The notes beneath the pieces were generated by a model that worked only from the letters and a program-made list of their open reading frames with translations, was not told the origin of the DNA and searched no databases. A program made the translations under genes and the position numbers. A DNA stretch of 64,000 nucleotides, from assembly GCA_028717245.1 (NCBI GenBank), contig JAQUOD010000002.1:140772-204771 (forward strand), read 5' to 3'. Positions 3 through 33,000 of this stretch are shown piece by piece. This DNA is from Candidatus Omnitrophota bacterium (GTDB taxonomy: Bacteria > Omnitrophota > Gorgyraeia > Gygaellales > Profunditerraquicolaceae). Position 1 is the first letter of the stretch. The number at the start of each line of letters is the position of its first letter.

Positions 3-3000
3 AGGGGTATAAGGCTTGAAGAAGATTACCTGGCGGTATTATCTGAATTACATAAGTTACATTTCAGCGATTTTGATACCCAACTTTTTACTGTAGAAGG
101 AAAGCATTATCAGGCGCACGAGAAACTCGGCGCGCATGTCGTTAAGACAGGAGACTGCGCCATAGGTACTTATTTTGCGGTATGGGCTCCTAATGCCCTG
201 GAAGTTTCAGTGATAGGTGATTTTAATAAATGGAACCCAACATCAAATTATATGTACCGGGTGAATTCAAACGGTATATGGGCGCTGTTTATCCCGGGGG
301 TCAAAGAAGGCGATCTCTATAAGTTTTCCGTCAAAGGGTGTGACGAGGTAATCCGTAAAAAGATTGACCCTTATGCGTTCTTTAATCAGTTTCCTACTAA
401 TGAACATCAACTTAGTAATGCATCGATTGTCGGGAGTTTGGGTTATTCTTGGAAGGATGATGCCTGGGTTAATGAGCGTTTATCTAATCAGGGGCCTGAT
501 AAGCCCATTTCCATTTATGAAGTCCATCTGGGTTCCTGGCAGCGCAAAAAAGAAGATAATAGTTGGTTGACTTATAGAGAGTTAGCAGAAAAGCTCGCAG
601 AATATGTTAAGGATATGGGATTTACTCATGTAGAGCTTCTCCCTGTCAGCGAACATCTCTTTTACGGTTCATGGGGATACCAGACAAGCGGCTGCTTTGC
701 TCCCAGTTCACGTTACGGCACGCCCCAGGATTTTATGTACCTGGTTGATTATCTCCATCAGAAGGGGATAGGCGTCATTATTGACTGGGTGCCGGCGCAC
801 TTTCCCAAAGATGAAGCTGGACTTGTAGCATTCGATGGCACAGAATTATATTCTCATAAAAATCCTTTAGAAGGGGAACATCCTGATTGGGGTACGCGGA
901 TATTTAATTATGGGCGTGCCGAGGTAAAGAGCTTCCTTATCAGCAATGCTCTTTTCTGGCTTAAAGAATACCATATTGACGGGTTACGGGTAGACGCGGT
1001 GGCATCAATGTTGTACCGCGATTATGGACGTAAAGAAGGAGAGTGGATTCCTAATAAAGATGGCGGGAGAGAGAATTTTGAGGTAGTAGCGTTCTTGAAA
1101 GAGCTCAACGAAGTAACCCATAGAGAGTGTCCGGCTATCCTGACCATTGCTGAAGAATCTACTGACTGGCAGGGAGTTTCGCGTCCCACAGATGGGGGAG
1201 GTTTAGGGTTTTCTCTGAAATGGGCAATGGGATGGATGCATGATACGTTAGAATATTTTAGACACGACCCTATACATAGACAGTACCATCAAAAAGAATT
1301 GACTTTTTATCCTTGGTATGCTTTTTCTGAGAATTTTACTTTAGTTTTATCTCACGATGAGGTAGTGCATGGTAAAGGCTCATTAATAGAAAAGATGCCC
1401 GGAGATTACTGGCAGAAATTTGCCAATTTGAGATTGCTCTTAGGCTTGATGTTTGCTATGCCCGGGAAAAAACTTTTATTTATGGGGGATGAGATTGGGC
1501 AACATAGAGAGTGGAACCATGACGGAAGCGTTGATTGGTATGTTCTCGATAAAAAAGACGAACATTCAAATATGCATAGAGGCGTACAGAATCTCGTAAA
1601 AGCCTTGAACCAATTATATCAAAGCGAACCGGCGCTTCACCAGCGTGATTTTGAATCTTCCGGTTTTGAATGGATTGATTTTAAGGATGCCAAACAAAGC
1701 GTAATCAGTTTTATCCGTAGAGGCAACAACCCTGACGAATCTGTTGTGGTAGTTTTCAATATGACTCCCGAGCCGCGATATAATTACCATATCGGCGTTC
1801 CTTGCGGAGGAGTTTGGCGCGAAGTTCTTAACAGCGATGCTAACGAGTATGGCGGTAGCGGTATGGGTAATCATGGGGTAGTAGATGCCACAAGTGAGCC
1901 GATGCACAATCGCCCCTATTCTTTAAATCTTACCTTGCCGCCCTTGGGAATGCTTATATTAAAAGTTAATAACCAAGCCTCCTCCGCCACTACAAAAGTA
2001 CAGGAGGATTCAAGAACTCCCCAGGATAGATTTAGAGAATTTTTAGGGACCAAACCAGAAGAATTTAATCTATGCGAGGCCTTAAAGCGATTTGGATTGA
2101 GTTTGGAAGAAGGAGTTGGTATTTTACAAAAGGTAAAATATGATTTTGGCGAGTATCTTGAAGTTTTGGACGAGAACGGAAAGTCAACCGGAAGAATGAA
2201 ACAGAGAGGCGCCATCCATGAGCAAGGCGATTGGCACAGGACAGCGCATATAATTATTATAAATAAGAAGGGTGAGGTTTTGCTTGGAGTTAGAGGCAAA
2301 AAAGCGCATAGTTCCCAGGGCAAGATTGATATATCCTGCGCCGGCCACGTTGCCATAGAAGACGGCAGGGATACTGCTTTTGAAGAAATCAAAGGCGAAT
2401 TAGTGATAGATAAAAATGAATTGTCCGAATTATCTGTTATCGGGCAGGAGAACGGATTCAAGAAGATAGGCGCTCTGCAACAGGAAGAAAAGATTGATGC
2501 CTGCGGGGTTTATTATTACCGGACAGCCGGGATAAATAAAGAATTTTCTACTCTTTATGTTGCCATAACAGATCTAACTGCCGATGAGATTAACGCGAGA
2601 TTACGCAAGCAAGGGGAAAATCGCGCGGTCGAAACAGTTTACTATGCCAATATAGAAAAAGAAGTTAAAGATCCAAACAAAGACTACAGTATCTATAGCA
2701 GCACTTTTAAGCAATATTTCTTAAATAGGGCAATATTGGATAAGATAATTGTTTTCACTAACGACGGCTCAGCGGACACCGCCTTAGAACAAGCTAAACA
2801 TAAGGCGTGGGGAATATATATTGAAATAAGAAAGCAAAATAAAGTTACATTCAAAGATGGCCGTGAATTCGAGGCTTTCGCCCATCAGATAGCCAATGAG
2901 GTGGGTGTAGAATTTGGATTAGATGCGAATCAGATAATAAAAGTTGCCCTTTTCTTAACTACTGCTTTCTTCCCGGGATGGGGCGGCCTGCCGGCACCAA

Positions 3001-6000
3001 TGCCTAATCCATCATATAAGAGCTTAGGATCCCTTGATTATAAGAAGCTTGTAGAACAGGCCTTAGGCGCCGGCACGTCACTAGAAACATTCGAAGGTAT
3101 TATGGCAATTCTAGAAAAGTTTGGAGATAGAATGATACGGGCTTATATTTTAACATACGCCAAATCCAAGTTGTCTAATAATGGAAGGCTCGTTGTCCAG
3201 ATAAGGGCGGAGGAAATTATACGTGCCATGGAAGCGCCTCATAAAAATAATAACAATGGCTATTATAATAGGAGAAAGAGAGAAGAAGAACGGCAAAGAA
3301 AAATACCTGATGTTATCGATAAAAAGGGTCTTCTTAGCAGAATGGTTGGCCGGTTGAAGAAAGCAAGCCCCGAAGAAACAGCGCAGATAAAGAAAAAATT
3401 AATTGAAGCCAGCAAAGATGATGCGGATGCGGTTATCGGTCCTGTTGTCGGCGCCTTTGTTGATCCTGAAATAAAATGTGCCGAAGAAATCCTCTTTGGT
3501 ATCCTGGATACAACCAAAGACCCGGCTAAAGTTTTCAATCGTGTTGTCCGCGCCTTGCATGAACGCAAAACAGATTCGGGTAAAACCCTATACCTCTGGC
3601 AGGGGCAGTGGTATGAGCCTACTCCGGAGGAAGCATTACAGCGGATAAGGCGCTTAGAAGAGTTTATTCGAAAAGCTGGTAAGCAGCATCCGGTAGAGGC
3701 CGGCAATGCGCTTGTCGGCGCATTGGCTGATTCTGACCCGCAGGCAGTGCTTTCAGCAGAAGAACTTCTTTTGGGTATAACAGAAGTATTCCCGGGAACA
3801 ACTGACAGGCAGCGTATCGTTATTTTTCTTCACTCTGTTAGAGTAGCTTTGGCAATAAGAATATTTACGAAGATAGCTAAAGAAAAGCCGTCGGAAGTTA
3901 AAGACGTACTGACCAGAATTTTCGAGGATAGGCATAATTCAATAAAGGCCAGAAACAGCGCCTTTGAAATCTTAAAGGCATTGAATGAAACGTCCATTCC
4001 GGCTGGCGCGATGAATGGTGGAATAGGGCAACAGCCGGTTGGCGCAAGCAACCCTACTCCCTTCTCCCGCCCTGTCTCTAAGGAAGCCCAGGAGCAGGCA
4101 GAGAAACTCTATGGCAAGAACTGGACATCTAAAGCGTTTACCCTTGATGACCTCCGGAATAATATTCTTGTCCAGGGGCTGACTAAAGATAATGCAGAAG
4201 GATTAATAAAGCAGATAAATGAAGTATCAGAAAACATCACTAAGACAGGCCCTCCGGAAGATTTAGCTAAAACCAAGGAAGCCTTAACGCAAATAAGGTT
4301 CTATCTCTCCAATGACACGGAAAAACTTGAGAAATACCCTGGAACAGATCTTCCTAATGTTGCCTCTTCCATAATTGATTCAAAAGAGGTTTATCTACAC
4401 GTTATAGGTTACTGGCAACAGCCCGACCAGCAAACAATTCTCCACCACGAAATCAAAAGCCACATCGCTGACAATGAGGCGGATGAAACTAAGGCGATGA
4501 AGGATACGCAGAGGTACTACCCCAGAGTAGTAAAGATTGAACCTTCTATACTTGATGTATCAGACGAGGAATTTGAAACCAAGGTTCGCCAAGCAGTGCT
4601 TGCCGGAGCAGACCAGCTACATACTGATTGGACGGATATTGAATTTACAAAACGGCCAACTGATATAGAGAATCTTACATCCAAGGTTAGATTCCTTAAG
4701 AAAAATTTTAACTTGCCGGTAGATGCCCATTTAATGGTGGTGGTAGATAAGCCCGAAGAGAATACCTATATTAACGCGGCTATCAATGCCGGCGCGGATA
4801 TTATTATTGTGCATTTTAAGGACGCCCATCGGGATTTAGAGCACCTTAAAGAGACTATCGCATATATTAAGTCAAAAGGCCGTAAGGTGGGCATAGCGCT
4901 TAAAATACCCGAACCCATTAAGGAAATAAAAGAGATTCTTCCCCAGATTGACACGGTCCTCTTATTGGCAGTAGACCCGGGTTATGGCGGGAGCCCATTT
5001 GATATAAGCGTATTGGGTAAAATTAAGAAACTAAGAAAGTTTATAGATGCAAAACACTTGAAGGTTGAAATTCAGGTAGATGGCGGCATTAGGCCCGCGA
5101 TTGCCGAAATAGTTTTTGATGCCGGAGCGGATATTTTAATTTCTGGTTCCGCCATATTTAAAGCAGAGGATATTTGTCAGGCCATTACGAACTTAAGAAT
5201 CTATTCGTCTAGAGAGCGCCTGATACGATATTTACGCCGTTACAAACCGGGCGCGGCAATACCTCTTCAAGAGGTTTCCCGGGCCATAGGTATTACACTT
5301 CAACAGATAGAGCCGCTTTTAGACGCCATTATTGATGAGCAGCCCGGTAAGTATATAGTTAAAAGGCAGGATGGCGGATATGCAGTTCCTCGCGGTTTAG
5401 GTTGTGCCTCGCCGAGAGAATTTGAAAACTCTGATAAGCAGCTACCTTATCGTGTTTTTACCGGAAGATATGCCCGGTATACAAATGTGGATACGACACA
5501 ATTTGAGCAGATTATATTAGGGTTATTTAAAGTCAAGGCGTTATCTGAGTTATCCCGGGAAGTCCAAAGAGAAGTATGGCGATTTAAACAGGCTTTACCC
5601 GAAATAGAAGATGTCCATTTTCAGGCAAGGGGTACCGCCGATATTATGGGAGGCGTATTGAATTGTGAAATTTGGGATCCCATGGTACCCCCAATTTTAC
5701 ATAAATATCAGTTAAAAGCAAGGTTAATCCGGCGTGAAAAAATGAAAATTCCCAGATGGGCGCTTAATGATTACCATCAATATACAATTACCGAAGTAGG
5801 CGGGCACGAACTTATTGTTAATGTTACAGCTGACCAATATGAGTTTAAAGATAGCGGCGCATTTGGGGCAGCCGCATATTATGACTTGGGCGTGGTGGTT
5901 ATACCGATAGAGGCGTTAGAAGATGGAACTTTATTTATGTATGCAACAGGCTTTCCCCGCGAAATACCTATGGAGGGAGTAAAAATTTCTTCTGATCCGA

Positions 6001-9000
6001 AAGACCGGGTCCAAGAGATTAGTCCTAATCTTATTGGTCCGCTTAGCATCGAACAGCAAAGAGACATCGTTGATTATGTCCTGCAAGAGGCGCAGCCGCA
6101 GATATCTTTTGACCAGGTTATTCCAGTGCGGGAAAAACAGGCTTATAAAAAATTATTTGCCAGATACGAAGGATATAAAGCGAGATTAGAAATAGACCAG
6201 ACTGTCCCGCTACCTAAATATTATTATGTATATTATGCTAATAATCCGGTAGGTGGTTTAAGAGTAAATTTAGAAAGTAGAAGTATTGATTCTAAATGGT
6301 TTGATGTAGGCACAAAAGGCGTCTTCTGTAATGATTATCTTCCCGCAATAGCTACTACAGGAAGGTTTGTCCCTGAATATGTCTGTGTGCTTATGGCCTT
6401 GCCTTCAGATATTGAATCGGCTGTAAGGCCAGAGATATGGGAGGTAATAGAAAATAAAGGGAATAATATCATTTTTCGTAAGGATGTGCCTTTTGATTAT
6501 AACCAAATAATACTTATAATAGACGAAGAGCGCATAGGCCGGGATGAACTTAATCAATTAAAGGAGTTCGTCGATAAATATAAGCTAACCCTCATCAGCC
6601 TTCAAGAGGCACAATTGGAGGCAGAACTGCTTTTTGAAGCGCGCAAACTCTACGACCGTGCCAGTCTCATTGCAGAAGGAAGGTTAACCTTAGATGAAAT
6701 CAGGATTTATGACAGGCCGGATAATATGGTTGAGTTTTATGAAGATTTACGGCCCGGAGATATAGTAGCACTTACCGATAACGAAGCGTATAGAGAAGCA
6801 TTCAAATTAAAAGTTTACGGCTATATTACCGAAGAAAGAGGAGATAAGTATGTGAATTTCTATCACCATCGCCTGGGTAGAATGCAAAGGAAGAAAATTG
6901 ATATTCCCGATAAGGTCTTGGGGAGGGATTATTCTCCTTGGTTTGGCATATATGCTACGGAGTATAAAAGTTATGACCTTTATCTAATCCGGCCTACTAA
7001 CGTGGTAATTCCCCTTGAGTTTTTATCTTATCTACATTTTTATGAAATCCTTGCTTCTGAGGAATATTCCTTGAAATTAAGCTTAACCCCTAAGTTACCC
7101 AGTAAGGGCATAAACTATTTAGATACCCTGTTTTCTCTACCTGAAGAGACGATAAGTGTGGCCTTAGAGTATTATAAAGAGGCAATAAGGATTATGGCGC
7201 TTCCTGAGCCCGAAGAGTATATTTACCGCCTGAGTCGTGAGCCTACTCCTAAAAACGTACGATTGCTATTACAAATTACCCGGATAATTCTTTATGAAAA
7301 AAGCCCTGATTTAGTACCTCAGGAAGTTATAAGCATGCTTCACAATGTAGCTGAATATAAAATTAAAGAAATTCCGTTTAGCTATAGAGATTGGGCTAGA
7401 TACATATTAGAGGCAATTGAAGGCAGAAGAAATGGGGGTACTGCTGGCTTTATGGATGATTCACTTCAGCCCTCCCTCGTGGCAAAGTACATTAAGGATA
7501 TAAAATATACTCCCTTACGGCTACTCTTGCAAGTATTCTTCGCGCCTGCCATTGTCCCCCATGAAATTGCGCATCTGCTCAGGGCTATTAAAAGGAAAGA
7601 ATTAAAGGGATTCAGGCCAAGGCATCTACTGGAAGGCATCCCTATCTTAAAAACCGGCCTGCCCATCTTGAGACTAGAAGGCTGGATTACCAATATCGTA
7701 TTGGCCGCTATATCTCTCATAGTATTATGCCATGCCCCTGCCTTAATTATTATCTGGATATTTCTTACCAACTTATTTCTCACCATATTTGAGCCATTAT
7801 TAAGTTTCAAAAATAATGAAGGCGATTTTATTTCGGAAAAAAAGAAAGGGCTTTCGAATCCATTTATTGCCGGCTGCCTGTTGCTTTTTATTCCGGTGGT
7901 TTCCGGATTTATCATAAATTCATGCAGTATTTTAAATATCGAATCTTACTTTTTCATAATTGGTTTAGTTTTATTAGTTGCGATTCTGGCGATTTTCATT
8001 CTTAATTACCCGGATAAATGGTGGTCGGATTTTAATGCCCCCTCCGCCAGAGAACACAAAACCCTTAATTTATATAAGAAACGCATTATGGAAACGGTCT
8101 TGCATTGGGCTGAAATGTTATTGCTATCCGACCAAAGTCCGCTTGTAGTACGTGGTGCCATCACAGACTTATCTGACTTCGTTGTTGAAAATAAAAATGA
8201 AATCGAATCCTCAGAGTTTATTAAGCGTTTAATTGAAGAAGTAAAGGATTTAGGTTGGCTTACCTATAATGCCATGGTTTCCGCCTTAGAAAAATTAGGC
8301 GCTACCAAAGAAGAGTGGTTGGATTTTTGCGAGATTAAAAATGTAAAAAGCATAGATAAGCTTACTTACAACGCCATAAAAGGCCTATTAGTAAAGTTAG
8401 GCGCTAACGAAGAACAGATGGCATATTTTTATAATCAGGCAAAAGCGGTTGGTTCAGATGCGCAAACCCGTCAAGCCGCTGAAGGATCATTGATAGAGAT
8501 TATCAATTCAACTTCTAATAATGGATTATTGCTGAGATTATTATCGTTAAATGAAGGGGAGGATGATTTTAAAGTTAACCGGGCTATACGTAGGGCGCTG
8601 GATTTGTTAGCAGCCCAGGCAGTACTCAAGCGAGGGTATCCTGAAGGGGCCATACCAGCCATATCAGAAGAACTCAAGAAATTACTCTCTGAAATAGGCC
8701 CTTCTTTGAGCCAAGGTTTAAGGCTAGAGAATACTGAACTATTAAAGGAAAATCTCCGGAAATTATGCTCATTAATTACTGAGAAAGGCCATATAAATGT
8801 TAATTCTCCCAGCCCATTGATTAGGCTTCTGGTGACCAGCCTGAATAAGGAAGATGTCTTTAAAGTAATAGACCAGGCTGTCTCCATTGAGAAGAAACGG
8901 GAATTAAAAAAGATTCTGGTAAGCTGTGTTGCAGTTTCCCAACTAACTTATATCATCTTAGCCTTATTGGGTCTTGAGGTAAAAGGCGTTATTGCGCCTA

Positions 9001-12000
9001 TGCACGCTTTTACCTTAATCCCTCTTTCTGGTGGAAGGGTTTTATTTGTAGATTTTAGTCTCAAGCTGATTTTAGAGATAGATCTTCTAGAACATTATCA
9101 AGAAGAAGGAGAAGGCAAATACCTGGTTCTAAAACCAGAATACCGCATTACTCCTGAAAGATTACTTGAGCTTCAGAGGCAAAAAGAGCAAGGAATCTTT
9201 AGATACGATAGATTAACAGAAGAAGAACTATTTAGCCTCTTCTATTCTTATATACAGATAACCGATGGTTATGCCTTAACTTCTGCTATGTATAACAACC
9301 TCGGTAACACCTACGCTAAATTAGGCAGATATGCTGAGGCAATAGCAGAATATCAAGCGGCCTTAAGGCTCAATCCTAACTATGCTGCAGCCCACAACAA
9401 CCTCGGTGGCACATATTTTATATTAGGCCAGTATGCTGAGGCAATAGCAGAACATCAAGCGGCCTTAAGGCTCAATCCTAACTATGCTGCAGCCCACAAC
9501 AACCTCGGTCGGATCTACTTTGGATTAGGTAGATATCCTGAGGCAATTGACAGTTTGGCAAGAGCAGTTAACTTACGCCCAGAATTAATAGATAATCTTC
9601 GCAAGATAGAAAGCGTAAGGCAACTGGTAAAGGCGAGGGCAGAGGAGTTAGCTAAAGAAAACAATCATGGCCTTGCCTCCGCAGCCCAGGCAGCGATAGA
9701 GGAGGAGGATAACCCCAGCCGCACAGGAGAGTCCGAATCCCCCCAGCGTGGCGAGCGGGGAGATTTTACCAAAGAACAGATATTAAACATCCGCCAAAAA
9801 ACTATTGCCATTGCTGAAGGAAAAATGCAGATAGTGGAAATGCCCTGGGTAAATATGACTTTAAAGGAACGGCGCGATTCCTTCAAGGAGCGGCTCTCCA
9901 GAGAGGCTCCTGCCAGAGACCCGCCTTTAGCCGTTGGCCATATTGAAGTCCTGGCTGTTGCTGAAGAAGATAATTTCCGCGCCATGGCACTCGATATTAA
10001 CGGTGAGTGCGTCCTTCTCCTTACCAAAGAAACCTACCTAAAAGAATTTTCCGAAAAAACCCTCGACCACGAAGTATTGGAGTATTGCCTGGGTGACCAT
10101 AATAAAGCAGTAGCCTTAGTTAAGAAAGAAGAAAAAGAAGAAAACTTCATCCAGCGCCTAAAGCAAACCTTAGATAGCAGTGATATCCAGAATCTGCCCA
10201 AGGTATACCAGGCTTTGGATAAAGACCCGGAATTATTAAGCCTTAAGGCTGATCGTGCCAGGCAGCTATATAAACATTTTGATGATTTAGGTAATGAAGT
10301 ATATAACCAAGGCCGGGAAGAAGAGGCTATCTCCTGCTATAAGTTAGCTATCCTCTTTGCCAGGCGTGCCGGCGCCTTATTTGTGCACCGTAATGAAAAG
10401 CAGTGGATAGGCGATATCAGCCTTTTAGGAGGCAAGATCTCTAACTCTTTGGATATGATGACTGGGAATTTGGAGGTTCCGCCCTTCTTTGGGACAACCA
10501 GCGTCCTGCAGAAATACCTCTGGCTGTATAACCAGCTGTTGAAGCCGATGCGCGAGATTGCTTTTGACGTAGATGCCCAGTATGACGTGGATATCTCTAC
10601 TGCCGAGGGCCGGATGAAGGATATGGTTAACAACGCTAATTTTTCCGAGGACACAGCAGAGGCTATGTGGGAAGAATTAAAGGCCATTGCCGCTGCCGAG
10701 GGATTAGATCCGATCGAGCTTGTTGAATTTATCTTCAGAAGTTCGCAGGGTTTAGAGGATTTGCCGGGCATACCTTCTGCGGGTATCGGCGATAGCATTC
10801 CGGTGCTGGGCAGGATTGAAGATGCAATTAATGTATTTAAGCAGGTTGCCGGCTCCACTTACAATAAGCGGGCATTCCAGTACCGCGATAAGGTAGCTGT
10901 CTTCAGGTGGTTGATGTATGAAACGACCCTTAAGGATTTAGAATATCTGATAGAGACCATCGAAGAACTGAATAAAGAGGTTAAGCGATTTGAGGTTGCG
11001 GGCATCACCAGGGATATTGAGCCCATATTAAAGGATTTAAAAGAGAATATCTCGCCGATAAAACGCGAAAGAAAACAAATGTGTTATGTTTCCTCAAGGC
11101 GCATATTGGCATTATTAGAACTGGCCAAGGGACGTTATCCTGAGAGGCGTTTTCTTGTTCAGATGATTTCTTCCTTAGAAAAAATAAGGACAGAGAGCCT
11201 GGATCCGGTAAGGATCGGCGGCGGTATACAGGTGCAGTTGATGCGCTCCAGCGAAGTATCCTTTGTTGGTTTTACGGTGAACAAGATAACCGGTTGGACT
11301 GGTTTTAGCAATGGCCTGGCAATTGTGGATTTTGATGTAGCCTATGGCCGGGGGGAGAATATTGTCCAGGGCCGCATTATCACTGACCACTACAAGATAG
11401 CCATTAACCCTCAAACAAAAGCTGTGGTTATCCTGAATAAGACCTGCGGTTCTAAGATAGCTATGCTTAAGCGTGGTGAACCGGGGCAAAAGTATCTGGC
11501 CTGGAAGGATATAAAAAATGGCATTACCGAGGAGATTACTGCCCAGTTAGGAAAGGAATACAATATGGTTACTCCGGAAGAGATGCGCAATAAATTCGTC
11601 ATCTCTGATGAAGAGGCAAAAGACTTTGCCTTCAGGGCCTACAGGACGTACCAGGTGCATAATAGGAATAGGCCCCAAACACCCATTCCTGTAGATTTAG
11701 AGGCTTGCCTCTATCGTGATGCGCGAGGCAAGAGGCAGTATTCTATCGTGCAGAAGAGAGACTCTGCCTTAAGGAACGGTTTTGATTTTGAGGACCCGGA
11801 TATTCTGGAATTAGTGATGCGCGAGGTTGTTGCTTCTGATGCTGAAGAGGCCCAGGCAGAAGGCCGGCTGGTTGGCCGGGGTTTTGAGACGCTCAATGCT
11901 GCTGCGGGCACCTCTTTTTGGGTAGAAGAAATCTCCACAGAAAGGATAAGAACTGCTTTGCTCCAGATTTGGGAGGAAGGTAAAGACGAATCTGCGATTG

Positions 12001-21000: not shown

Positions 21001-24000
21001 TTAAAGACAGAAGTTTTATAGGCCATGGGTTAATGCGGAGTATGATAATAGACCTTAGCGCGAAATTCAGCAGTATAGATAGGCTTGTTGCCGGCCCATC
21101 CTTAAAGAAAATTATGATTATTGCTTCGGATACGCCTTATGCGCCGATTTATATCTCAAGTATTTTACAAAGTAAATTAGGTAAGGGTATTGAGGAAATA
21201 TCGCTATTGTCTGAATACCGCTACTTAGGATTAAAAGGAGAAGAGTGCCTCAGCGAATTTATTAACCAGATTAGAGCAGCAGACCTTTGGGATTTACCCC
21301 AGCAGATACAAGGTATTTATCAGGGGTTAGAGAGTAGAATACCCGCGATGTTAGCGAAAAGTAAGATTAGTTTTGTGACGCAGGCTGCTAAAGGCGAATT
21401 TGATTTTGTATTTATGCCAGCCTCGCCCGCGCCGCAAGAGTTAGAGAAGGTCAAGGCAGCCCTACGTGAAGGAGGCATATTCGCAGAAGATAGCGGGACG
21501 GATATCTGCCTATTTAAGAAAGCCAAGGGAGAGCTAGTTAACGTCTATCACATAAATGAAAAACCAGACTACAAGAATAAATTGACCCTTTGGGATTTAC
21601 GCAATACTCCTAATGCCTGGTTAGGGGCAGAGAATGTCATGGTGGATGTTGAGAATAAATGGCTTAATAAATTAAGTTTTGAATTAGAATCGGTTTTTGC
21701 TGCCGAAAGGCCTGAGAGGGCATCACATCACGGTCTGTCACATTCTTCGCGGATGTGGGAGAAAGCCAAGATTCTGATTGAGCGGCTCAGATTAAATGTG
21801 GATATTGAAGTTTTAATTGCGGCGGTATTCTTACATGATATAGCCACAGCTTATAGCGATGAGCCACAACATGGAGAAATCAGCGCGCAAAAGGCTGAGC
21901 CAATCTTAAGAAAAATCGGGTTCCCCGAGGAAAAGATACTCGCTGTCTTAGAAGCAATTAGGCTGCACGATGCTTACGAGGCAAAGAGGCAAACGCCAGA
22001 GGCTAAGATTTTATTTGATGTTGACGAAATTGATGCTTTCGGCGTAATAGGTATCTGGAGATATCTGATGATTTATTATGACCGTGGCTGGGACTTAAAC
22101 CGGATGGCCACTCATATAGTTAATAATATCCAAGTAAGATTTAATAATTTGCATTTCGCAGAATCCCGCTCTATGTGTAAAGTGGATTATGAGTATGCTT
22201 TAGGATATTTTGAAAAACTATGCGCAGAACTAAAGTCCGGCTATGATATACAAAGCCCATTCGGAGCAGTCGGTATTTATAATCTCCTTGTTCAATATAA
22301 AACCTCTTCCTTTAAAGATACGCCCGCTTTAGCAAACAAGGAGCTTTCAAGTGAATTTAATACGTTAAGCCCAGAAAAGCAAGAAGCAAATAGGGACGGT
22401 TTTACTTTCGCTGTGGAATATCTTGACAGATTTTTAAAAAATAATGCAGGATCCGTAAATGCTACAGCTTTATCTTATGCTGAAGACGGCGCGCCTAAGA
22501 AGAGATCCGAAGACCAGCGAGGCTCTTTAGCAGGTACGTCACCTAAAATTATTATTGCGATCGCACTGGCTGCGGTTGGCGCCACACTCGCCGCCGTTTT
22601 CCTGCCGGGCTACGAGAAAGAAATCGCCGTCATAGCGCCCCTGCTTATGTTGCTGGGGATAATAAAATCAAGGAATTTTATTCTCAAAGAAGATTTTCGA
22701 TCCATTAATATCGGCGCACAGATAAATTCTTCAATATCCGCGTTCATCTGGCAGCTCATTAGCAAACACCTTAAGAATATCGATGAAAAACAGGAACTTG
22801 AATTACTGGAGAAGCTGGACAGCTTCATCGACAACCTTGTGAAATTGAATATTATTATGATTGGCGGCATGGGTAGCGGAACGCACTCAGTACCAATTAA
22901 TATTCATAACATAGTTATCGTTGATATTCGCGCCTTGCAAATGGACACTTTTGGAAACTTCAGGGTAGCCCTGAGCAATGGACAGAGTGCTGAAGACCTT
23001 ACGGTCCTGCAGAAGATAATGAGAAAGCTCTTAGATATTCAGGACAAGGTCGAACTGCTTAAGTACAAATGCATGCTGGAGGCGCCTATTTTACTTACTG
23101 GCCGCGGCAGAATCGAAGAAGATATGATCGAATACGAATCTGAACAGGCAATTGCTCAACTGGTAGAATCATTTATCGATGTTGAATATCCTGTCATGCT
23201 TATCCATGAACTGAGATATCTTTATTTCCTTATCGATTCCTGGAAAGGTTCTACGAACAAGGCAAGCACCGGGAAATCTATCCTGGCTCTTTTGGCAAAA
23301 CTGGAACAGGAAATTAAGCAAAAACTGCAAACGGTGGCTAACAAAGAAAACCGGGCTTTGACAATTCAAGATCAGGATATGCCCATCGGTATGAAAAAAG
23401 ATCTTGAACAGGCGCTGGTTGAACTTTACAAACTAAAGGAATTAGCTGAAAATCTGAAGGTTGAGCAGCCTTCCACCATTGAAACCGGCATCAAAAATGA
23501 TCTTCCGAAGATCTTGATAGGTAGAATGTTCAATGTCATCAGTTCGCTGAAAGAACGTTTCCGTATTAGCCCCTATGCATCATCCAAAGAAGAAGCCGCG
23601 GGAAAAATTATTGATTACTCAAACGATAACAGGCAGGATATACTTTCAAAACTCGACGATCTGGATCGGTCAATTAATATACTGGCGAGTGCCGGGGCGG
23701 ACGATAATTTTGTTTTATCTGAACATCTGGCAGATCTCACGCGGCAATTAAGTGAAACGTTCATTACGGCAATGGCTCTGCACAACCTGGAAAAAGCTCT
23801 GAGGGCCATTGAAGGAATCTTCAGAAAGATTATTACCCTTGAAGAAAAGGCGCGGAAACTGGGAAAAGACAGGGATACAACAAGGTTTGCTCCTAATGTA
23901 GATATTATCAGCAATATCGACAACCTCCTGCCGCTAATCGATCATCCGATAGTAATGGTGGGCATCCTGGATTATTTTAACCGGTATGTTGCCTTTAACC

Positions 24001-27000
24001 TGGATTTTACTGACCGCGAGGCAAAGGCCGATAAGTTGGAGTTACTGGATGAACTCAGGAAAGCAGTTGCCGTAAAGAAGGAAGAACTGACACATTCCCA
24101 GGATCAATCGGCTGGCATCATAGAAAAGGAAGATGTATCCCAAAAGATCAATGACTTATCTGCCGCTGAAAAACTTATTGATGATCTGGAAAAGAATATA
24201 AATCATCTAAGAGATTTTTCTGACGTTCAAAATCCAATTGATGAAACAATTAAATCATTAGACCAAAGAAAATTGCTTCCACCCGCAACTAACCTGCCGA
24301 CCATGACAGGACTGATGGGCCCCTTAGCGGCAGTGACTATCATCCTGTCAATGGTATTAGCACAATACATTTTAGGTTCAGGCTTCGGTCAGGCAATCGA
24401 TAGTGTGCGGCTTGTCCAGGCAGGGATACTGCCTGATCTTTCCCGGCTTGGGCTTGCGGGCCTCTTGCTCCCGCCTCTTGTTCTTCTCGGGATGGCGATG
24501 TCAGGAAAAGAAAGTCCGGCGTCCTTTCAAGCGGGAAAGAATGAAGCACTGATAAGGATGCGAATAGGGACTCTGCGATTGCAAGATTTGAAATATATTA
24601 CTTTTGAAGATGTTGAACGAATCACCATAAAAGGTTTGCTCCTTGGGCTTCTTACTGATCAGTCGGCGGACGTCAGGGCAGCAATAGCAGAAAAACTCTG
24701 GTTTGACGGAAAGATAACCGATAATGCAATGCTTGCAAATGTTGCAATTCAGGATTTGAATAACAGAATTCAAGAAATGGGAAAAGGTTTTGAGGAGGAC
24801 AAAAATGTCCGCCTTGCGATTGTTAAAACCCTGGTTCATATGCTCCCTCAGTTTATAAGAAATCCCAAACTAAACAAAAATAAGGCATTTGTGGGCAATT
24901 GTTATGCAAGCGTAGAAAGGGAGCTGGGTGCACTTTTGAAAGAAGAAGGCCCAATAAAGAAAGGGGCTGAAATTGCCTGGGCAGAATTTGTCAATATCGA
25001 TCCGGGTGATACGCTGGAGCTTCGAGAATCAAAAGAATTTAGCTTCAGCTTCAAGGCAGGATATGGCATAGATACGGCTGATATCTGGAATATGACCGTA
25101 GGAATAACTAAAGCAGACCTGGGTGAAATTCCTTCTGATGCTATTATCATTGGTCTTGATTCAAACATGACCGATCAAACCGGATTTGCTGACAAAGCAA
25201 TAAGGATTATTGCCAGCAAATTGTTTTTCCCGAGAAAAAGTAATTTATCATTGACAAAGGATCTCATTTTCCCGACAAAAGGTTCTTTGAACCCAGGGCA
25301 TGCTTTAGCGGTACTCCTTGGATCAATGATTGATGATGCGCGATTGAATAAAGCGCCCGGATGGAAATATGCGATAAGCGTAATTACCCATTCGCCAGAG
25401 TCGAAGACTCCGAATGAAAAGGAATTCAAATTAGCAATAAATAATGCATTGTTGTTAGCTGAAACAAATAAGGCTAGCTCGGTTACAATTACGATCTTTA
25501 AGGCAATTAATGACAAGACATCAGCAAAATGGATGCTTTCTGCAATTGAAGAATTTGCAAGAGACTCTAAGCCCAGGAATTTGAAAAGAATTATCATCGC
25601 TCTAGAAGACAATCACGAACAATATATGACATTCCTGAATGAATTGCTGTCAAAGGAGAAGCCAAAATATAGGCAACAAATTCCCCTTTCTCAAAAGAAT
25701 AACCAGAAAAATAAAGCTAATGAATCCTTGTCGCAAAAACCAGCCGCAGTAGTGCCGGATGAAAGCAGGCAAACATCAGCACAACTTGCCAGGGAAAAAA
25801 TATTGTCAGGTTCTTTTAATACAGAAGATCTAAAGCAAATAACATTAAAGGATATAGACCCTAAATTACTTGATGCGTTGTTGTTTCAGCTGCGCACCAA
25901 TCCTTCTGCCCAGATTCGAATGGAAATACCATCGGCTTTATGGTCGAAAGGAGAGATTACCTCGAATCTGGAATTGACATTAAAGGTAATATGGTCCTTG
26001 TCATGGCTTTTACGTAGAGGCTCTGAAGTACAAACTGATAGCATAGTCAAGCTATCAATGGCATTTCTTCTGGGTAACATTGAAATTGCCTACCTGAGTA
26101 ACCAGCAAATCAGGGAAAACCTTGACCATGCAGCCGCTGCTGCAAATGAAGACCTTAATATTCATTTTACCACCCTTCAGAACGAATTGGACGCGCTGTC
26201 AAATGACAAAAATGAAGACGTGAAAAATGCGGCAAATTTACTGTCCGCAAACATAAAAGAAAGGCTTGTTTTATTTAATATCTTAAACAAAATACCGGTA
26301 TTTGGCCGACGGCCGCCGGCGCAAAGAGGCCAGAATGCAACAAGCGCCGGTGCCCGTGAGCCGATTATAAACTTTGCTATACCCAGCAATGTCAAAAGCA
26401 TTTTAATAGGTAATCTCGAAATTGCAATAGTTAGAGAAGACATAGGCAAAATAAAATCCGACGCCGTTATCGTTTGCTTAAACTCCGATATGAAGGCTGA
26501 TACTGGAACCGCGGAGAAAATAGTTGCAACGGTTGCTGATACGGATTATTACAACCACAACCAAAAACTGGCACATGATTTTATATTCCCCAGGAAGGAT
26601 GTCAATGTCGGATCAGCCTTTGAAATATTTCTCAGAAACATCAAAAATGAGCCAAAATGGCAGACTGCTCCCGGCTGGCAGTATGTAATAAACACCATAA
26701 CCCACCAATCAAAATACGCGGGTCCCAGCATCAATAACTTCCAGTTGGCTATCAAGAGTGCGCTGGAACTGGCTGAAAAGTACAGGCTGAGATCAGTTAC
26801 GATACCGGTTATCAAGTTGAGCAACGATGAAACATCAGCCAACTGGTTGGTTACTCCTGTTGGAAACTTTATCAGGGATAAGAAACCCAGGAATTTGGAA
26901 AAGATAACAATTGTCGTCAACAGTACCAGTCAGCAAGCGGCTTTTACTAAAGCCTTGTTGAAACTGCGAAATCTTGCGGTCGAAGAAATGGCGAGAAGCT

Positions 27001-30000
27001 TGCCAGGGCCGCAAAGAGGTGCTCGTAGCCTGTTCATCGGCTTAGCTTTTGTCGCGGGAGCGCTTCTTGATTATCTTGGGATCGGTCCGGTGCATTCGCT
27101 GCAAATCTATCGCGCCGGATTATTTACAGACCTAATTTCACTCGCGGCGCTCGTTGCCGGAATAGGGTTAATGATATATGCTATTTATGCGAAGATAGAC
27201 ATCGAGAATATAACCAGGCGCTCTTCCTCCAAATTTGGCCCACATCCTCTGCAGGAAGGCTTAAGGCCTTTATTCCAGAGGGTTGCTTGGGCAGATAAGT
27301 ATGCCCCGGCTGGTTTTAAGATTAAAGATATCTACGTCTTTAAAGTGCAAAAACACGGCATGGCCCCTACTCCGGCTATCTCATTTGGGATGGTTTTAGA
27401 GAATGGCGTAGTCTTAGAGCAGGCAGGGGTAATGGGAGGGATATCCAAAGGAAAATCCGAACCTGAAACCCACCCCAGCATTGATCAGGCAATTGAATTC
27501 TTCAATAAAAATGTCAGAAAGCATTTTATCGGGCTAAACGTCAGCCAGCCTGATGAGATCACCGATAAGATCATTGACTTAGATGAGCAATTCCGGACCC
27601 AAGCCGAAAACAAAGATAAACCCCGCTTCTCTTATATTGGCGCTGAGCTATCAGTAGGCATCTCCATGATTTGCTCAATTGCCTTTGCCGAAAGATTAGG
27701 CGTACCTTTAGAGATTATCACCAACTACCGTTATAACAAGTTCTGTTTAACTAAAGGCTATTCTAAAGAGCTTCGTCCCATGACTATCCCCGTAAACTAC
27801 TCTGTGGTCTGGGAAGGGGGTAAGCATGGCGTAGCCAGGCCATTAAAGGAGTTAGTGGAGCAGGGCATTATCAAGGATGCCTCAGAATTCCCGGATAAAA
27901 ACATAAATTTAGCCATGATCCCGCCGCAGGAAGTGCAGGTTATGGCCTTTACTCCTACCTGGCAAGAGGCAAGAGAGATCGCTATCCGGCTTACCGAGAA
28001 ATTCCAAGCCCTCTTAAAGAAAAAAGGGATTGAGATTAAGTATAAGTATGGCGCTGAATCCGGCTGCACTACTGAGCAGACCTATACCCAGGATGGCCGG
28101 CTGATTACCTTAGAGTTAATCCTGGATATCCTGGATGAGGCACGTAAGGCATTAGGGGCTGATGCCAAGTATGTCCGGTATGCCTTGGATATTGCCTCCT
28201 CTGAGATGTATATCTCCAAGATTGATAAATATTATATTGGCCCATCTTCTGCCGGCAATGAGAGCGGCTTAGTGACCAATGAAGAGTTCACCCAGTATAA
28301 ATTAAAACTCTTTAAGCGCTATCCTTTTATCTCTGTAGAGGACTGGGCTGATGAATCTAAATTAGAACACTGGCTCTCCGGCAAGGCGATTATGCCTTCC
28401 ATGATCCAGATAGGCGATGATAATGTCGTCTCCCGCGCAGACTTAATCTTAAAATTCAAAGACGTGATTAATGCCCATCTACAAAAACCCAATCAATCCG
28501 CAGAAGAATTGGCCATGATTCTGGCTGTAGCCACCAGCCATAAACTGGGTAATGTCGTGGTCTTTTCTCACCGCAGCACCCGGCCTGAACTGGAGACCTA
28601 CACCGCGCAGACAGCTATGGGTATGGGCGCTTTTGGAGGCAAATGGACTCTCTGGGGCGCTGGCCGGGGAGGCCTGATTGCCGCTACTAACCAGGCTGAT
28701 GAACTCTATAACCAAGGCCCTTACAAAAATGTAAAGCTTCCTTATCAGGGCGGGCTGGCCTTAGACCCAAATGGCCCGTATAAAGATTATGGTTGGGCTA
28801 AGAGGGTGAGAGAAGAGATTGCAGACCAAGAGTTACAGTTTAGGAACGAGCAGGGTAAGAGCAATTATCCTCTGGACTTAAGGAGAGAGGCCCCGGCCTT
28901 ATTTGAGCTGGCAAGAAGATTCCGCCTGCCTATTTACTCTAAGCTAGATGAGACAATTTACGTCTGGGATGCGGATGGTGTAGAGAGCGCCCTTCAGGCA
29001 AGATATGCCCAGGGTCAGAATGACCAGGCAATGATCTCTATTATTACTATCGGCCAAGACGGCATGCCTAAGTCAAGATTAGATAAGGGGGGGGCGGTAT
29101 TAAATATTAATTTTAGAAAAGACAGGCAGATACAATGGGTCTCCGCTATAGTTGACCCTAATTTTAATGCCTTCAAAGTTACGCCTCAGGCAAAAGATAT
29201 AAGTATCACCGGCACGGTCCAGTATGTCCCTGAGCTGGCGCAAGAGAGGGCTATTTTAGCTGATACCATAGTAGAAAATAGTTTAGCGCAAGTCTTAAGC
29301 CGGGAAGGTATTCATACCGTATATTTGTTTGATGCGGAAAAGAGCGTTTTTAGGGCTGTGGTTAAAGGCGGTAGAGAAGAACTCTTTAAAAATGAGGATA
29401 TAGAATATGCTTCCATCTCCATGCCGGTACTGATGAACCTTGAGCAGATAGGAAAATACAAGCCTGATGAATATAAGCAATTGGATAAAGATAAATATGT
29501 GGCTTGGTTTTATGGCCCGCTGCCTCAAACTGAAGAGTTAAAACAAATACAAAATAGAGACTACCGCATGTATCCGGCATTAAGCATGTTCGTTTTAGCC
29601 AGGGCAAATATAAGAAAGATTCAGACTGCCCGGCCCGGGACGCACGGTTTTACCAATTTATCCGCGCTGGATTTAATCGGCCACGTAGCCAAAGAGGACA
29701 TAAAGAAGATCACCAAACTCTTTGTAGAAAGGCCCGACGGCACATTTGAAATCAAAGAAGGAGACGGCTGGGCCTGTATAATGGAGTGCCTGAAGGTCGG
29801 CGATACCTGCGTAAAGATGATACTAGAGGCAGTAGAGCAAAAAGAAGGGGTGCTCATTCTCTACGGCGACCACGGCTCTGTAGACGATACCAGCCAGCCA
29901 GGCCATAGCTTTAATAATGTGCCGATATTTATTATTGATTTTAAGAATAAACAGGTCAAATTAGTCAGGCATAAAGGTAACCGAGAAGATACCCAGGCAG

Positions 30001-33000
30001 ACATTGCCGTAACTGTCTTGCACATTTTAGGGATAGCCAAGCCCGAGGAGATGACCGGCAAGAGCCTCCTACCGGATGATTATGTGGGCGCTAAAGAGAG
30101 GATTGTCTGGGAGGTCCTCTTAGACGGCTTTGGCCACACTGATTTTGCTGATCCAAAAAATGCCTTTGGCCCGGCAATCAAGCAGGGCATCATACCTACG
30201 ATTAAAGGATTATATGACCAAGATAACTACGCTATCCTTAAGGCCGCAGGTTGGTATGCCGGATTAAGAGGCGGCAGACAGGAAGATTTTAGGCCCGAGG
30301 AGATAAAGAACAGGGAGACGATGTTAAAAGGGGTGGCCCAGGCTGCTGAAAGTCTTAAGCTCCCCATAAAGATTATTTATTATGATTACCGTAACATCCC
30401 TGAGGCAACTAAAGCCTACGATTATCAGGCAGGTATAAAAGAGCTTCGGGAGAGCCCGTTCTTAAATGACAAAGATTTTGTCGTCAAGACGCTGGATAAT
30501 GAAGTTAATGTCCTTTGCCTTGACCCGGCGCAAATGGGCTCCACTGAATATAATACCTGGACTATAGGCGCAGGCCGCATTGTCAAGCAGTCCATTGTCG
30601 TCTTGGATGAGCAATTTATTAGCGGGGAAATCTGGGGAAATCCGGCCTTAAAAAATTATCTTGCCTTGGCTAAGAAACAAGGCTATGCCCACATGGTAGG
30701 CTTATTGCAAGAAGCCGGGGTGCATGCCTCAGCCACTCAGCTTTACTATCAAAATAAAAATTTCAAGAAAAATGGCATAGAGAGTCTTATGTTTGACTTA
30801 GGCAGTGACGGAAGAGACGAAGGGCCGAGGGATTGCCTAGGTCGCGTGCGCCAGCTTAGGGGAGCGCTTAAATATTTTGGCATAACAGATTATACAATCA
30901 ATATCCGCGGCAGAGAGATATGTTTTGACCGGGCTAAGAATTGGAAATTGACCGTAGCCTTTATTAACGAGCTTGTATTTGGCAGCCGGCTTGAAAAAAG
31001 AGCGCTGCAATCCGAGGAGCATAGAAAAGACAATCCCGGCTTTATCAAAGGCATAGCTTTATTAAATATGCTCTTAGTATTATTCGGGCTGGGGATTGTA
31101 GTTTCGTTATTGTTAGGTGTTTTTAAAAATGACATGCCTGTCCTTGCTGGATTGCCTCAGGGGTTTTTAAACTGGTTTGTACCAATGAGTGGGGTTGGTA
31201 TCAGCGCATTGATATTCTTGGTGGGGGTGTTAAGGGGTAGTCAATTCTTTGACAGCAGAACCTTAGAAAAAGTTATTCGCAAGCTCTTTGATATTGCTAT
31301 TGGGAAAACTGCGGGAGATAAAGAATATGCCGGGGGACTTTTAAAACAAATAGCAGAGAAAGTTGATAGTGATGATGTATCGCTGGGAGTGCGGCAAATA
31401 GCTGTTGGTTTGTCAACGCTGGAAGGCCTGGTTAATAATAATCCCCCGGATAATAAAAAAATAGGCTCCATTCTTAATATTGTTAATAACAGATTTACTG
31501 AAGGGGTAGAGGTCATATTAGATAACGAGAAATTATTAAAGATATTGATTCAAGCAATGAGCAGAGACAAAGAGATAAGCTATCAGATAGACTATGTATT
31601 GTCTTTTGAATTAGGCCTGGGAGAGAAGCTACGTGATAAAATCAGGCAAGCCACAACTTCTTCCGACCTCGAATTAAAGGAATGCGCCCAAAAACTGTGG
31701 GAGGAATTTGTAGAAGATACCAACAAAATCATAGATACAGATTTAAAAAGAGGCCGGAATTGGCAAGGCGCCATGGACACGTATTTGGGGACGGCTAATG
31801 ACGAAGGCTCAAAATTTTTATTAAAGAGGTTATTAGAGCCCAAAGAAGATCTTCTTGTGCAAATATACTCATATTTATGGCAGGTCAAAAGATTTAAAAT
31901 ATTTCATCAACATCTTTTGCAAGCTATGCATTCATCGGACGAAGAATTAATTAAGCTGGCTAAGAGTGTATTTGATTCTTTTAGTGAAATGATTACTAAA
32001 GATATAAGAGTAGAGGTAGAGATAGATATGAGAGATTACTACATTGATGCCATTAAGATATATCTTGATTTTCCCAATGGCCCTTCTTTAGATTATCTAA
32101 AGAAAATGTTCAACCAAAACACAACATATAAATTGGGAATACGTAATGCTATTATGAGTATATTATTGAGTAGCGAAGACGCAGATTTGCAGGCAGAAGC
32201 AAAAAAGTTATATTATGAACTTTTCCCAGAACCCGACACAAACAGCGACCACAACCTGCGCCTTGATACGCAGCGCCTGGCTGGCCGCATTTTAGAGGTT
32301 GTTCAAAAAAATAATATTTTCTTAAAGGTATATAATGAAGCCTACAAAAATAATTTAGAATATATTCAGGAACTCCATGGCAACAGGGGCCCGCCAACCA
32401 AAGTAGAGAAACGCTTTGCCCGCACTAACCCCATTGCCCGCGGCCTTACCCCCGATGGAGATATTAACTGGCTCATCTCCGCTAAATTCAGAAAGTTCTC
32501 GCCCAAAGTGCTCGCCTCCATTAAAGAACACGAATCCGGACGCACGGAACTACAAGGTTTAATCAGGCAGTATAATCAATCCCGGCAGAAAAAAATTTCT
32601 CCTATAACGAAAGCCTTTTCTAAAGTATTTAATCCGCAAAGCCTAATTATCTCATCATCCGTTATTTTTATCTTAGCTTGTTTAGGTATAATAATCGGCA
32701 AACTTAATGCTATGGGATTATTTGTTATCTCAATATTAATGGTGGGGATGGTTACGACAGCCCCCTTGATGCCTTCCCGCGATTGGATGGAATGTTCCCG
32801 GCAAATTGAAGCATGGGTAGGTATCAATACCGCTGAAACTAGAAGTTTGATTATATCCATGTTCAATGACCCTGACCGTACGGTAAGATTAGCGGCAGTT
32901 AACGCCTTTAATAAAATTAAAGACGAGCGGGCTGGCTTTGGGTTGTGTCAAATTATAAAAGACACCGATGAATATTTTCAAGTGAGGGCAGCGGCTATAT

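Follow-up and report, generated by a model that had tools for sequence, protein, structure and literature searches.

The 64,000-nucleotide window analyzed here (positions 140,772–204,771 of contig JAQUOD010000002.1 from a Candidatus Omnitrophota bacterium) is one continuous, non-repetitive coding sequence. It fits an internal segment of a giant Omnitrophota protein of the Archaeovorin type or "multi-enzyme metabolic cluster" class. Cassettes for five central-carbon and glycogen enzymes lie in a single reading frame: the branching enzyme GlgB, ribulose-phosphate 3-epimerase (RPE), a long enzyme resembling phosphoenolpyruvate (PEP) synthase (PPS), a long enolase, and a circularly permuted cofactor-independent phosphoglycerate mutase (iPGM). 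The best explanation of the whole, with a probability of about 0.72, is that the giant protein is a membrane-associated array of working enzymes rather than of dead binding modules. A preliminary description of this DNA had taken the architecture to be undescribed; however, it was published in 2023 (10.1101/2023.11.21.568195) and 2026 (10.64898/2026.06.07.730766), and the window is a new example of it. The additions over the published giants are cassettes of whole-gene size, rare clades at three scales, and the permuted iPGM.

The open reading frame and its enzyme cassettes

Frame +3 has no stop codon from nucleotide 3 to 63998 (21,332 codons) and its open reading frame (ORF) leaves the window at both ends, whereas each of the five other frames contains 656–1973 stops. 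Given a stop density of about 8–9% of codons in the other plus-strand frames, so long an open run could practically not arise by chance. Across the frame, the three codon positions have the usual composition of coding DNA, and codon frequencies in the annotated domains correlate with those in the unannotated linkers (r = 0.93). In the 64 kb, no Rfam family at the gathering threshold and no tRNA was found, and Tandem Repeats Finder reported one nucleotide tandem repeat, a 102-nt unit in the TPR region. Taken together, the lack of stops, the uniform codon usage, the lack of Rfam and tRNA matches, and the single short repeat establish one coding sequence. Embedded RNA elements or introns were rejected on the Rfam and tRNA results, and recent tandem expansion on the single TPR repeat; self-similarity at the protein level is confined to the HEAT, TPR, and GerE modules and one 370-aa duplication. 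With at least 21,332 aa, the protein falls in the "large" class (at least 10,000 aa); "giant" denotes at least 30,000 aa, and both ends of this protein lie beyond the window.

An artefact, through a chimeric assembly, stops lost by sequencing error, or modules translated from internal starts, is extremely improbable. The stop-free run occurs in one frame alone, and its coding signature is uniform with the linkers included. Shine-Dalgarno-plus-start signals are not enriched in frame (18, versus 47 and 11 in control frames) and none lies at any cassette start, which, with the absence of in-frame stops, also led to the rejection of separate genes. Furthermore, GlgB is embedded in locus-wide open ORFs at four independent loci of metagenome-assembled genomes (MAGs), and published complete long-read genomes have ORFs of up to 147,155 aa.

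The ORF, the enzyme cassettes, and the helices that bracket two of them are listed below, with amino acid positions numbered along frame +3 of the window.

3..63998, + strand: continuous ORF (frame +3, open at both window ends), part of the gene for a giant protein of many domains threaded through the membrane
87..1967 (aa 29–655), + strand: GlgB cassette, complete 1,4-alpha-glucan branching enzyme with CBM48, GH13 catalytic domain, and C-terminal beta domain (Pfam, NCBIfam, PDB)
4530..5201 (aa 1510–1733), + strand: RPE cassette, full-length epimerase barrel (Pfam, NCBIfam, PDB)
10137..15713 (aa 3379–5237), + strand: long PEP-synthase/PPDK-like cassette (Pfam, PDB 2ols, relatives P0278/P0279)
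10410–11645 (aa ~3470–3881), + strand: ATP-grasp domain of the PPS-like cassette
12567–12830 (aa 4189–4276), + strand: phospho-histidine swivel of the PPS-like cassette
13164–13982 (aa ~4388–4660), + strand: PEP/pyruvate barrel of the PPS-like cassette (NCBIfam, PDB alignment)
13983–15713 (aa ~4661–5237), + strand: C-terminal region of the PPS-like cassette, ~580 aa, conserved, without recognisable family
27030..27188 (aa 9010–9028, 9044–9062), + strand: hydrophobic helix pair directly upstream of the enolase-like cassette (hydropathy, counts of flanking lysine/arginine [K/R])
27219..28832 (aa 9073–9610), + strand: enolase-like cassette, a divergent "long" enolase of ~540 aa (Pfam, NCBIfam, AlphaFold2)
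28920..31022 (aa 9640–10340), + strand: circularly permuted iPGM cassette (Pfam, PDB 1ejj, AlphaFold2)
31068..31232 (aa 10356–10374, 10392–10410), + strand: hydrophobic helix hairpin directly downstream of iPGM (hydropathy, flanking K/R counts)

All five enzyme folds are found by Pfam in the stop-free frame, as had been proposed from the DNA letters alone, and the coordinates given then were close. The GlgB module, placed at 87–1967 instead of 57–1977, is a bona fide branching enzyme with its catalytic residues kept. Its Pfam domains (CBM_48, Alpha-amylase, and Alpha-amylase_C) span aa 41–655, and its scores of 938, 891, and 874 bits all pass the NCBIfam equivalog cut-offs of 741 (NF003811), 577, and 464 (TIGR01515), respectively. 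The match to PDB 8zqa covers residues 14–617 of 620 (E = 1e-229). All four GH13 regions (I–IV: DWVPAHF, GLRVDAVAS, AEEST, and LSHDEV) are intact, which bears out the earlier impression of an intact catalytic site. For RPE, the Pfam model Ribul_P_3_epim (PF00834) is matched over positions 1–198 of 198 at aa 1511–1719 (E = 1e-40). The module narrowly passes the NCBIfam subfamily cut-off (NF004076; 167 versus 165) but fails the equivalog TIGR01163 (155 versus 213). In the alignment with PDB 1rpx (1e-33), the module keeps its metal/catalytic His/Asp/His/Asp positions (H-x-D, D-x-H, and DGG) as well as the GS phosphate loop.

The PPS-like cassette is larger than the PEP-utilizing module previously noted at 12600–14000. 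That module is real, but the unit starts about 2.2 kb earlier, with an ATP-grasp domain near nt 10,410. Pfam matches are PPDK_N (86.5 bits, aa 3473–3830) and PEP-utilizers (36 bits, aa 4188–4266), and four collinear pieces align with PDB 2ols, giving the complete order of ATP-grasp, swivel, and barrel. When aligned with seven canonical PEP synthases, the unit retains the His of the swivel and, in the barrel, R, R, E, N-D, and C. The scores lie below the equivalog cut-offs for PEP synthase (NF005057; 153 versus 598) and TIGR01828 (46 versus 843). Only two proteins match this rare type, the stand-alone P0278 and P0279 (~2,170 aa), with 47% identity over ~1,850 residues; the identity is also about 47% in the C-terminal ~580 aa.

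The enolase-like cassette is extended at both termini and carries an internal insert. Enolase_N and Enolase_C are found by Pfam at aa ~9140–9542, where Enolase_C passes its cut-off (65 bits versus 21.5) and Enolase_N stays below (18.6 versus 35). The eno equivalog TIGR01060 is missed (80 versus 300). However, all 11 catalytic/Mg positions (S39, H159, E168, E211, D246, E295, D320, K345, H373, R374, and K396) are kept in the module and in its clade. The AlphaFold2 model has a predicted local distance difference test score (pLDDT) of 86 and a predicted template modelling score (pTM) of 0.89, and the top 50 Foldseek matches are all enolases (TM 0.81–0.87), with both domains covered.

The adjoining module had been described as a phosphomutase at 29000–30070. 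Its identity stands, but it runs to about nt 31022, because circular permutation places the N-terminal third downstream. Canonical residues 220–509 come first, followed by 1–209, with an insert of ~110 aa after the D12 motif. Pfam iPGM_N and Metalloenzyme are matched at aa ~9659–10342, and the alignment with the Bacillus iPGM (PDB 1ejj) falls into three pieces, 220–394 and 417–509 first and then 53–209, with the D12 motif between. The cassette shares with canonical GpmI (PDB 1EJJ) the two-domain alkaline-phosphatase-superfamily fold, all Mn ligands (D12, D403, H407, D444, H445, and H462), and all substrate-binding residues (H123, R153, D154, R185, R191, R261, R264, and K336). It differs in the permutation, the insert, a Thr nucleophile, and a score below the equivalog cut-off (TIGR01307; 177 versus 331). 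The AlphaFold2 model of the 706-residue unit has a pLDDT of 90 and a pTM of 0.90. All 21 significant Foldseek matches are iPGMs; their coverage is partial, as expected when an aligner that depends on sequence order meets a permutation. Profile and structure searches thus recover the named families, with the catalytic positions aligned and with only enolases and only iPGMs among the structural matches of the two modeled units.

The permuted order is identical in P0001, P0005, P0017, P0018, and L090, where the canonical C-terminus is joined directly to the N-terminus. P0016 is a stand-alone permuted iPGM with a different cut point of the same ring, and lies directly downstream of a pfk gene on two contigs. 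P0019 is a further relative. Close matches to the permuted form come from six clusters, after which the score drops from 453 to 137 bits. Two broken iPGM copies were considered and rejected, since the relatives have the direct C- to N-terminal junction and the AlphaFold2 model is one compact unit. No report of a circularly permuted iPGM was found in the literature consulted, and this sub-feature appears to be new. With cut points that differ among relatives, it is a clean natural case of permutation in a central metabolic enzyme.

Relatives as single genes, fusions, and giants

The enolase-like, iPGM-like, and PPS-like modules can each be assigned to a rare, lineage-specific clade. For the enolase-like module, 21 of 1.84 billion representatives match at E <= 1e-30, and ordinary enolases appear only near 1e-13; the source names on enolase-like relatives include several Omnitrophota and one Elusimicrobiota. 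Across the modules, the closest relatives come from Omnitrophota MAGs, plus one Elusimicrobiota MAG and one labelled Planctomycetales. Clade members are 46–66% identical, and their flanks share nothing.

These clades occur at three scales: as stand-alone genes, as fusions of two to five enzymes, and in a giant (the window). The cassettes are whole-gene sized, and stand-alone counterparts exist for the enolase-like module (P0138, 550 aa; L086, 573 aa; and L088, 616 aa), the permuted iPGM, and the PPS-like module. Among the fusions, P0136 joins PGK to the enolase-like module, P0139 combines TIM, PGM, PGI, and enolase-like, and P0137 combines GAPDH, PGK, aldolase-like, TIM, and enolase-like. L087:1076-12031 is a 3,652-aa fusion of PGK, FBPase_3, TIM, and enolase-like on a 476-kb contig. 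The enolase-like module and the permuted iPGM are fused to each other in L090 and P0001. This continuum from stand-alone gene through fusion to giant suggests in-frame capture of whole genes as the way in which giants grow. No enolase-like clade member sits inside a giant in the Joint Genome Institute (JGI) scan, which makes the window the extreme end of the clade's range.

Three consecutive genes at the P0013 locus (JGI sample 3300075153) encode an FBPase (1,261 aa), GAPDH+PGK (1,588 aa), and TIM+enolase-like+PGK (1,978 aa), and the locus adjoins a sugar ABC transporter and a GH2 glycosidase. At this locus and in L087, the whole of lower glycolysis/gluconeogenesis seems to be encoded as a few huge fused genes. 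P0005 adjoins PFOR and PEPCK, and P0278 is a long PPS-like gene amid housekeeping genes that include pfk.

The recurrent fusion, in varying order, to glycolytic/gluconeogenic partners supports a functional coupling of enolase, iPGM, and the PEP/pyruvate enzyme; such recurrence is a classical sign that functions are shared. The earlier statement that these are consecutive steps of lower glycolysis holds for the identities found here, and their clades are recurrently fused to pathway enzymes. The larger proposal of a covalently fused metabolon survives as functional coupling but not as a dedicated glycolytic or strictly channelling unit, given that the enzymes are scattered and their order is not conserved.

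Conserved synteny between giants was considered and rejected. The nearest GlgB cassettes are in Omnitrophota MAGs (57–63% identity), each in an ORF open across the entire fetched locus, and only this cassette is common to the window and L001, L002, L003, and L060. Its neighbors are NUDIX, a GlgA-type synthase, and a GH94 phosphorylase in L002, sigma-54 activators and a histidine phosphatase in L001, and LOG and CofD in L060. No further module common to the window and P0136–P0151 was found.

Activity, processing, and location of the enzymes

The giant protein would be built of whole-gene-sized cassettes with unannotated linkers between them, and with hydrophobic helices, single or in pairs, that thread the chain through the membrane. 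GlgB, RPE, the long PPS-like enzyme, the long enolase, and the permuted iPGM most likely stay catalytically active; enzymatic activity of the cassettes is predicted from their conserved sequences. The PPS-like enzyme, enolase, and iPGM would catalyze consecutive steps from pyruvate through PEP and 2-phosphoglycerate to 3-phosphoglycerate, in either direction. The recurring FBPases, the PPS-like enzyme, the PEPCK neighbor, and GlgA/GlgB hint that the physiological direction may be gluconeogenesis towards glycogen. Arranged at the membrane in one array, working enzymes of central-carbon and glycogen metabolism may be co-localised and co-expressed in an ultra-small cell. Giant genes of this kind make up a large share of very small Omnitrophota genomes. 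With five textbook enzymes in one chain, their active sites intact, the functionality of such domains becomes directly testable.

Several observations weigh against an array of working enzymes. Three of the five modules miss the NCBIfam equivalog cut-offs by a wide margin, and a changed substrate or role is therefore possible for them. The iPGM nucleophile S62 is Thr in the window, although it is Ser in P0001. The enzymes are not contiguous; they are dispersed across 10,000 residues that also hold hydrophobic helices and HEAT, TPR, protease, HD, methyltransferase, GNAT, HAD, and DNA-binding modules. This scatter, with a cassette order that varies between giants, weakens a channelling metabolon in the strict sense. 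In addition, the signals of sidedness conflict. Signal-peptide-like (Sec) N-termini with AxA-type sites are present in 18 of the 21 complete relatives of the three divergent modules (P0001, P0002, P0005–P0009, P0011–P0014, P0016–P0018, P0136, P0137, P0278, and P0279). TMHMM and DeepTMHMM runs in both preprints put the metabolic domains outside the cell (10.1101/2023.11.21.568195; 10.64898/2026.06.07.730766). In contrast, the enolase-iPGM unit of the window lies between two pairs of helices whose outer flanks are rich in K/R and whose loops are short and neutral (the downstream pair being the hairpin at 31068..31232). Under the positive-inside rule, these flanks point to a cytoplasmic unit. A topology from helix parity meets the difficulty that several helix candidates are marginal and that "TM11" is a buried enolase helix. 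Enzymes that depend on ATP and phospho-sugars would be very odd outside the cell, where they lack obvious substrates. This conflict between export-type N-termini and cytoplasm-only substrates sharpens a question left by the published work.

A permanently fused chain may be contrasted with a polyprotein precursor, which, once threaded through the membrane, would be cleaved by embedded proteases and/or by signal peptidases at internal signal-like helices. Such processing is possible but rather doubtful. It would release single enzymes and transcription factors, and it is compatible with active enzymes, differing only in the final physical state. An archaemetzincin (M54) signature is intact at aa 6801–6840, each cassette equates to a whole gene, and several are preceded by a hydrophobic helix similar to the signal-like N-terminus of their stand-alone relatives. 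The chain also contains LuxR/GerE, HTH_3, and sigma-70 region 4 modules, which are normally soluble, and C39 or S8 peptidases of giants have been put forward by West-Roberts et al. as the cleaving enzymes (10.1101/2023.11.21.568195). However, no conserved cleavage motif was found at the cassette borders, and neither C39 nor S8 domains were found within the window. The fusions of two to five enzymes are complete ORFs without a detectable protease domain, and covalent fusion therefore seems to be tolerated.

The conflicting sidedness signals allow a further alternative, in which the cassettes face the periplasm or the surface, or reach a prey or host cell. There they would pre-process host sugars or rewire host metabolism, within the attachment/predation role proposed for giants. 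This is unlikely, although the signal-peptide-like N-termini and the published predictions speak for it, as do the 3-fold increase in peptides of the Velamenicoccus archaeovorus giant in prey-attached cells (published) and the transporter and glycosidase beside the fused P0013 locus. The PPS-like enzyme needs ATP, and enolase, iPGM, and RPE use phosphorylated intermediates that are not expected outside the cell. The chain's DNA-binding helix-turn-helix (HTH) modules depend on the cytoplasm, to which the K/R-rich flanks of the enolase-iPGM unit also point. The stand-alone enolase-like P0138 has no signal peptide, and the pfk, PFOR, and PEPCK neighborhoods resemble housekeeping metabolism. Processing and export may also be combined in a "stop-less operon", a polyprotein or export-targeted enzyme train that delivers a complete gluconeogenesis/glycogen toolkit (the long PPS, long enolase, permuted iPGM, RPE, GlgB, and partners outside the window) to the extracytoplasmic face or a host cell. 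The export part of this quite unlikely scenario draws on the signal-peptide-like N-termini of the smaller relatives. If true, it would imply metabolism of phosphorylated intermediates outside the producer's cytoplasm, or metabolism expressed as one membrane-threaded precursor.

Enolase at the cell surface is a well-known moonlighting protein in other bacteria, and this background favors a different alternative, that the folds are kept for ligand binding or scaffolding (e.g., glucan- or plasminogen-like binding) without catalysis. The large shortfall of three modules against their equivalog cut-offs agrees with it, and giant ORFs reportedly evolve rapidly, some classes being adhesin-like. Nevertheless, inactive modules, which the preliminary description had listed as an option, are very unlikely. 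Every checked catalytic, metal, and substrate position is conserved in the window and in the clades, with the conservative Ser-to-Thr change in iPGM as the exception. The clade members have kept their identity to one another while their flanks are unrelated, and both fusion partners and neighbors are pathway enzymes. The membrane-associated array of active enzymes remains the preferred reading.

Kinship with described giants and the remaining modules

Giant ORFs of more than 20 kb are common across Omnitrophota (published). Archaeovorins are giant ORFs of this phylum with TIM, PGI, FBPase, PGM/PMM, aldolase, and PPDK domains; the type protein, from V. archaeovorus LiM, has 39,678 aa, and HEAT, TPR, PPDK_N, HAD, and GNAT domains belong to their content (West-Roberts 2023, 10.1101/2023.11.21.568195). 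The window resembles them in its very long single ORF, many transmembrane helices, and sugar-metabolism enzymes embedded in frame, and contains HEAT, TPR, PPDK_N, HAD, GNAT, methyltransferase, peptidase, and glycoside-hydrolase-family (GH13) domains. It differs in that enolase, iPGM, RPE, and GlgB are not named in the West-Roberts text, and in that glycosyl transferase, NUDIX, and SecA_DEAD are absent from this 64-kb segment, outside which they may lie. A divergent SecA_DEAD domain and an N-terminal C39 or S8 peptidase, which are present in most full-length giants, gave no match in Pfam scans of the 21,332 aa, and the N- and C-terminal parts of the protein lie beyond the window.

The "multi-enzyme metabolic cluster" class of Omnitrophota long proteins is characterized by ~2% helix density and almost no nucleotide repeats (Nielsen & Lui 2026, 10.64898/2026.06.07.730766). 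Likewise, many distinct Pfam families tile the chain in the window with none dominant, methyltransferase, GNAT, HAD, and HD domains ("module 1") stand alongside sugar metabolism, helix density is ~2% of residues, and nucleotide-level tandem repetition is almost absent. A crude hydropathy scan gives ~28 hydrophobic 19-mers along the chain, roughly 2.5% of residues. However, the enzymes given prominence in the published catalogue are starch synthase, GT1, PGM/PMM, ROK kinase, and hexokinase, and the lower-glycolysis set and permuted iPGM of the window are absent from the Nielsen & Lui main text.

Comparison may also be made beyond this phylum. Natural pathway fusions include TIM-PGK in Thermotoga maritima, TPI-GAPDH in stramenopiles, and the pentafunctional AROM protein in fungi. 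In these, consecutive enzymes share one polypeptide in which each part is active, and P0137, L087, P0013, and L090 are larger versions. Such fusions have two to five soluble domains and a few thousand residues at most, whereas in the window, within a chain of at least 21,332 aa, the enzymes are spread over more than 10,000 residues, with unrelated modules and membrane helices in between. Flavivirus-type polyproteins are membrane-threaded and encoded by one long ORF. As an analogy only, they share the alternation of membrane helices with enzyme domains and an embedded protease; the window belongs to a cellular gene that is far longer.

The other features of the window are as follows.

1968–4529, 5205–9272, and 22440–27122, + strand: "dark" protein between the enzyme cassettes (~850, 1,350, and 1,560 aa), with a normal coding signature and no Pfam match
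9282..9596 (aa 3094–3198), + strand: TPR repeats, scaffold or interaction module (Pfam TPR families)
16965..18686 (aa ~5655–6228), + strand: HEAT-repeat array, scaffold module (Pfam HEAT_2 7e-69, 8 stretches; self-similarity)
20109..20531, + strand: archaemetzincin-type Peptidase_M54 metalloprotease (Pfam PF07998, 1e-21)
24606–25622 and 25824–26936 (aa 8202–8540, 8608–8978), + strand: internal duplication of a ~370-aa unit (30% identity, E = 2e-41)
32,400–58,200 (aa ~10,800–19,400), + strand: GNAT, CheR-type and several other S-adenosylmethionine (SAM) methyltransferases, HAD, a second TPR block, and a metallo-beta-lactamase fold
42828–43682 (aa 14276–14560), + strand: four tandem LuxR/GerE-type HTHs
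~59643–59789 (aa ~19881–19929) and 62901–63065 (aa 20967–21021), + strand: further DNA-binding modules, HTH_3/XRE and GerE/sigma-70 region 4
1916–2461, 10337–10858, and 43412–44014, − strand: antisense ORFs of 173–200 aa inside the giant ORF

The M54 module has a complete zinc and Cys4 signature, HELGHAFGLRHCDNPGCVM...CPSC, read from the translation at aa 6801–6840 (nt 20403–20522), and is a possible candidate for a self-processing protease. The HEAT array matches alphaRep/HEAT structures in the PDB, and a HEAT module is typical of Archaeovorin-type giants. A search for hidden enzymes gave no PDB sequence matches for aa 656–1509, 1735–3090, and 7480–9040, and the HEAT repeats were the only PDB match in aa 5238–6700. 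For the ~370-aa duplication, neither Pfam nor the PDB gave a match; hydrophobic helices occur in pairs in the region around it.

An HD domain is also found in the chain by Pfam. The domain set at 32,400–58,200 fits the "regulatory" module set published for Omnitrophota long proteins. DNA-binding modules occur inside a membrane-threaded chain, and the giants L001 and L060 have sigma-54 activators and sigma-70 region 2. Finally, apart from the three antisense ORFs, the window has no complete ORF of 150 aa or more. These three are probably by-products of the codon bias of the giant ORF, since the matching minus frame has the fewest stops.

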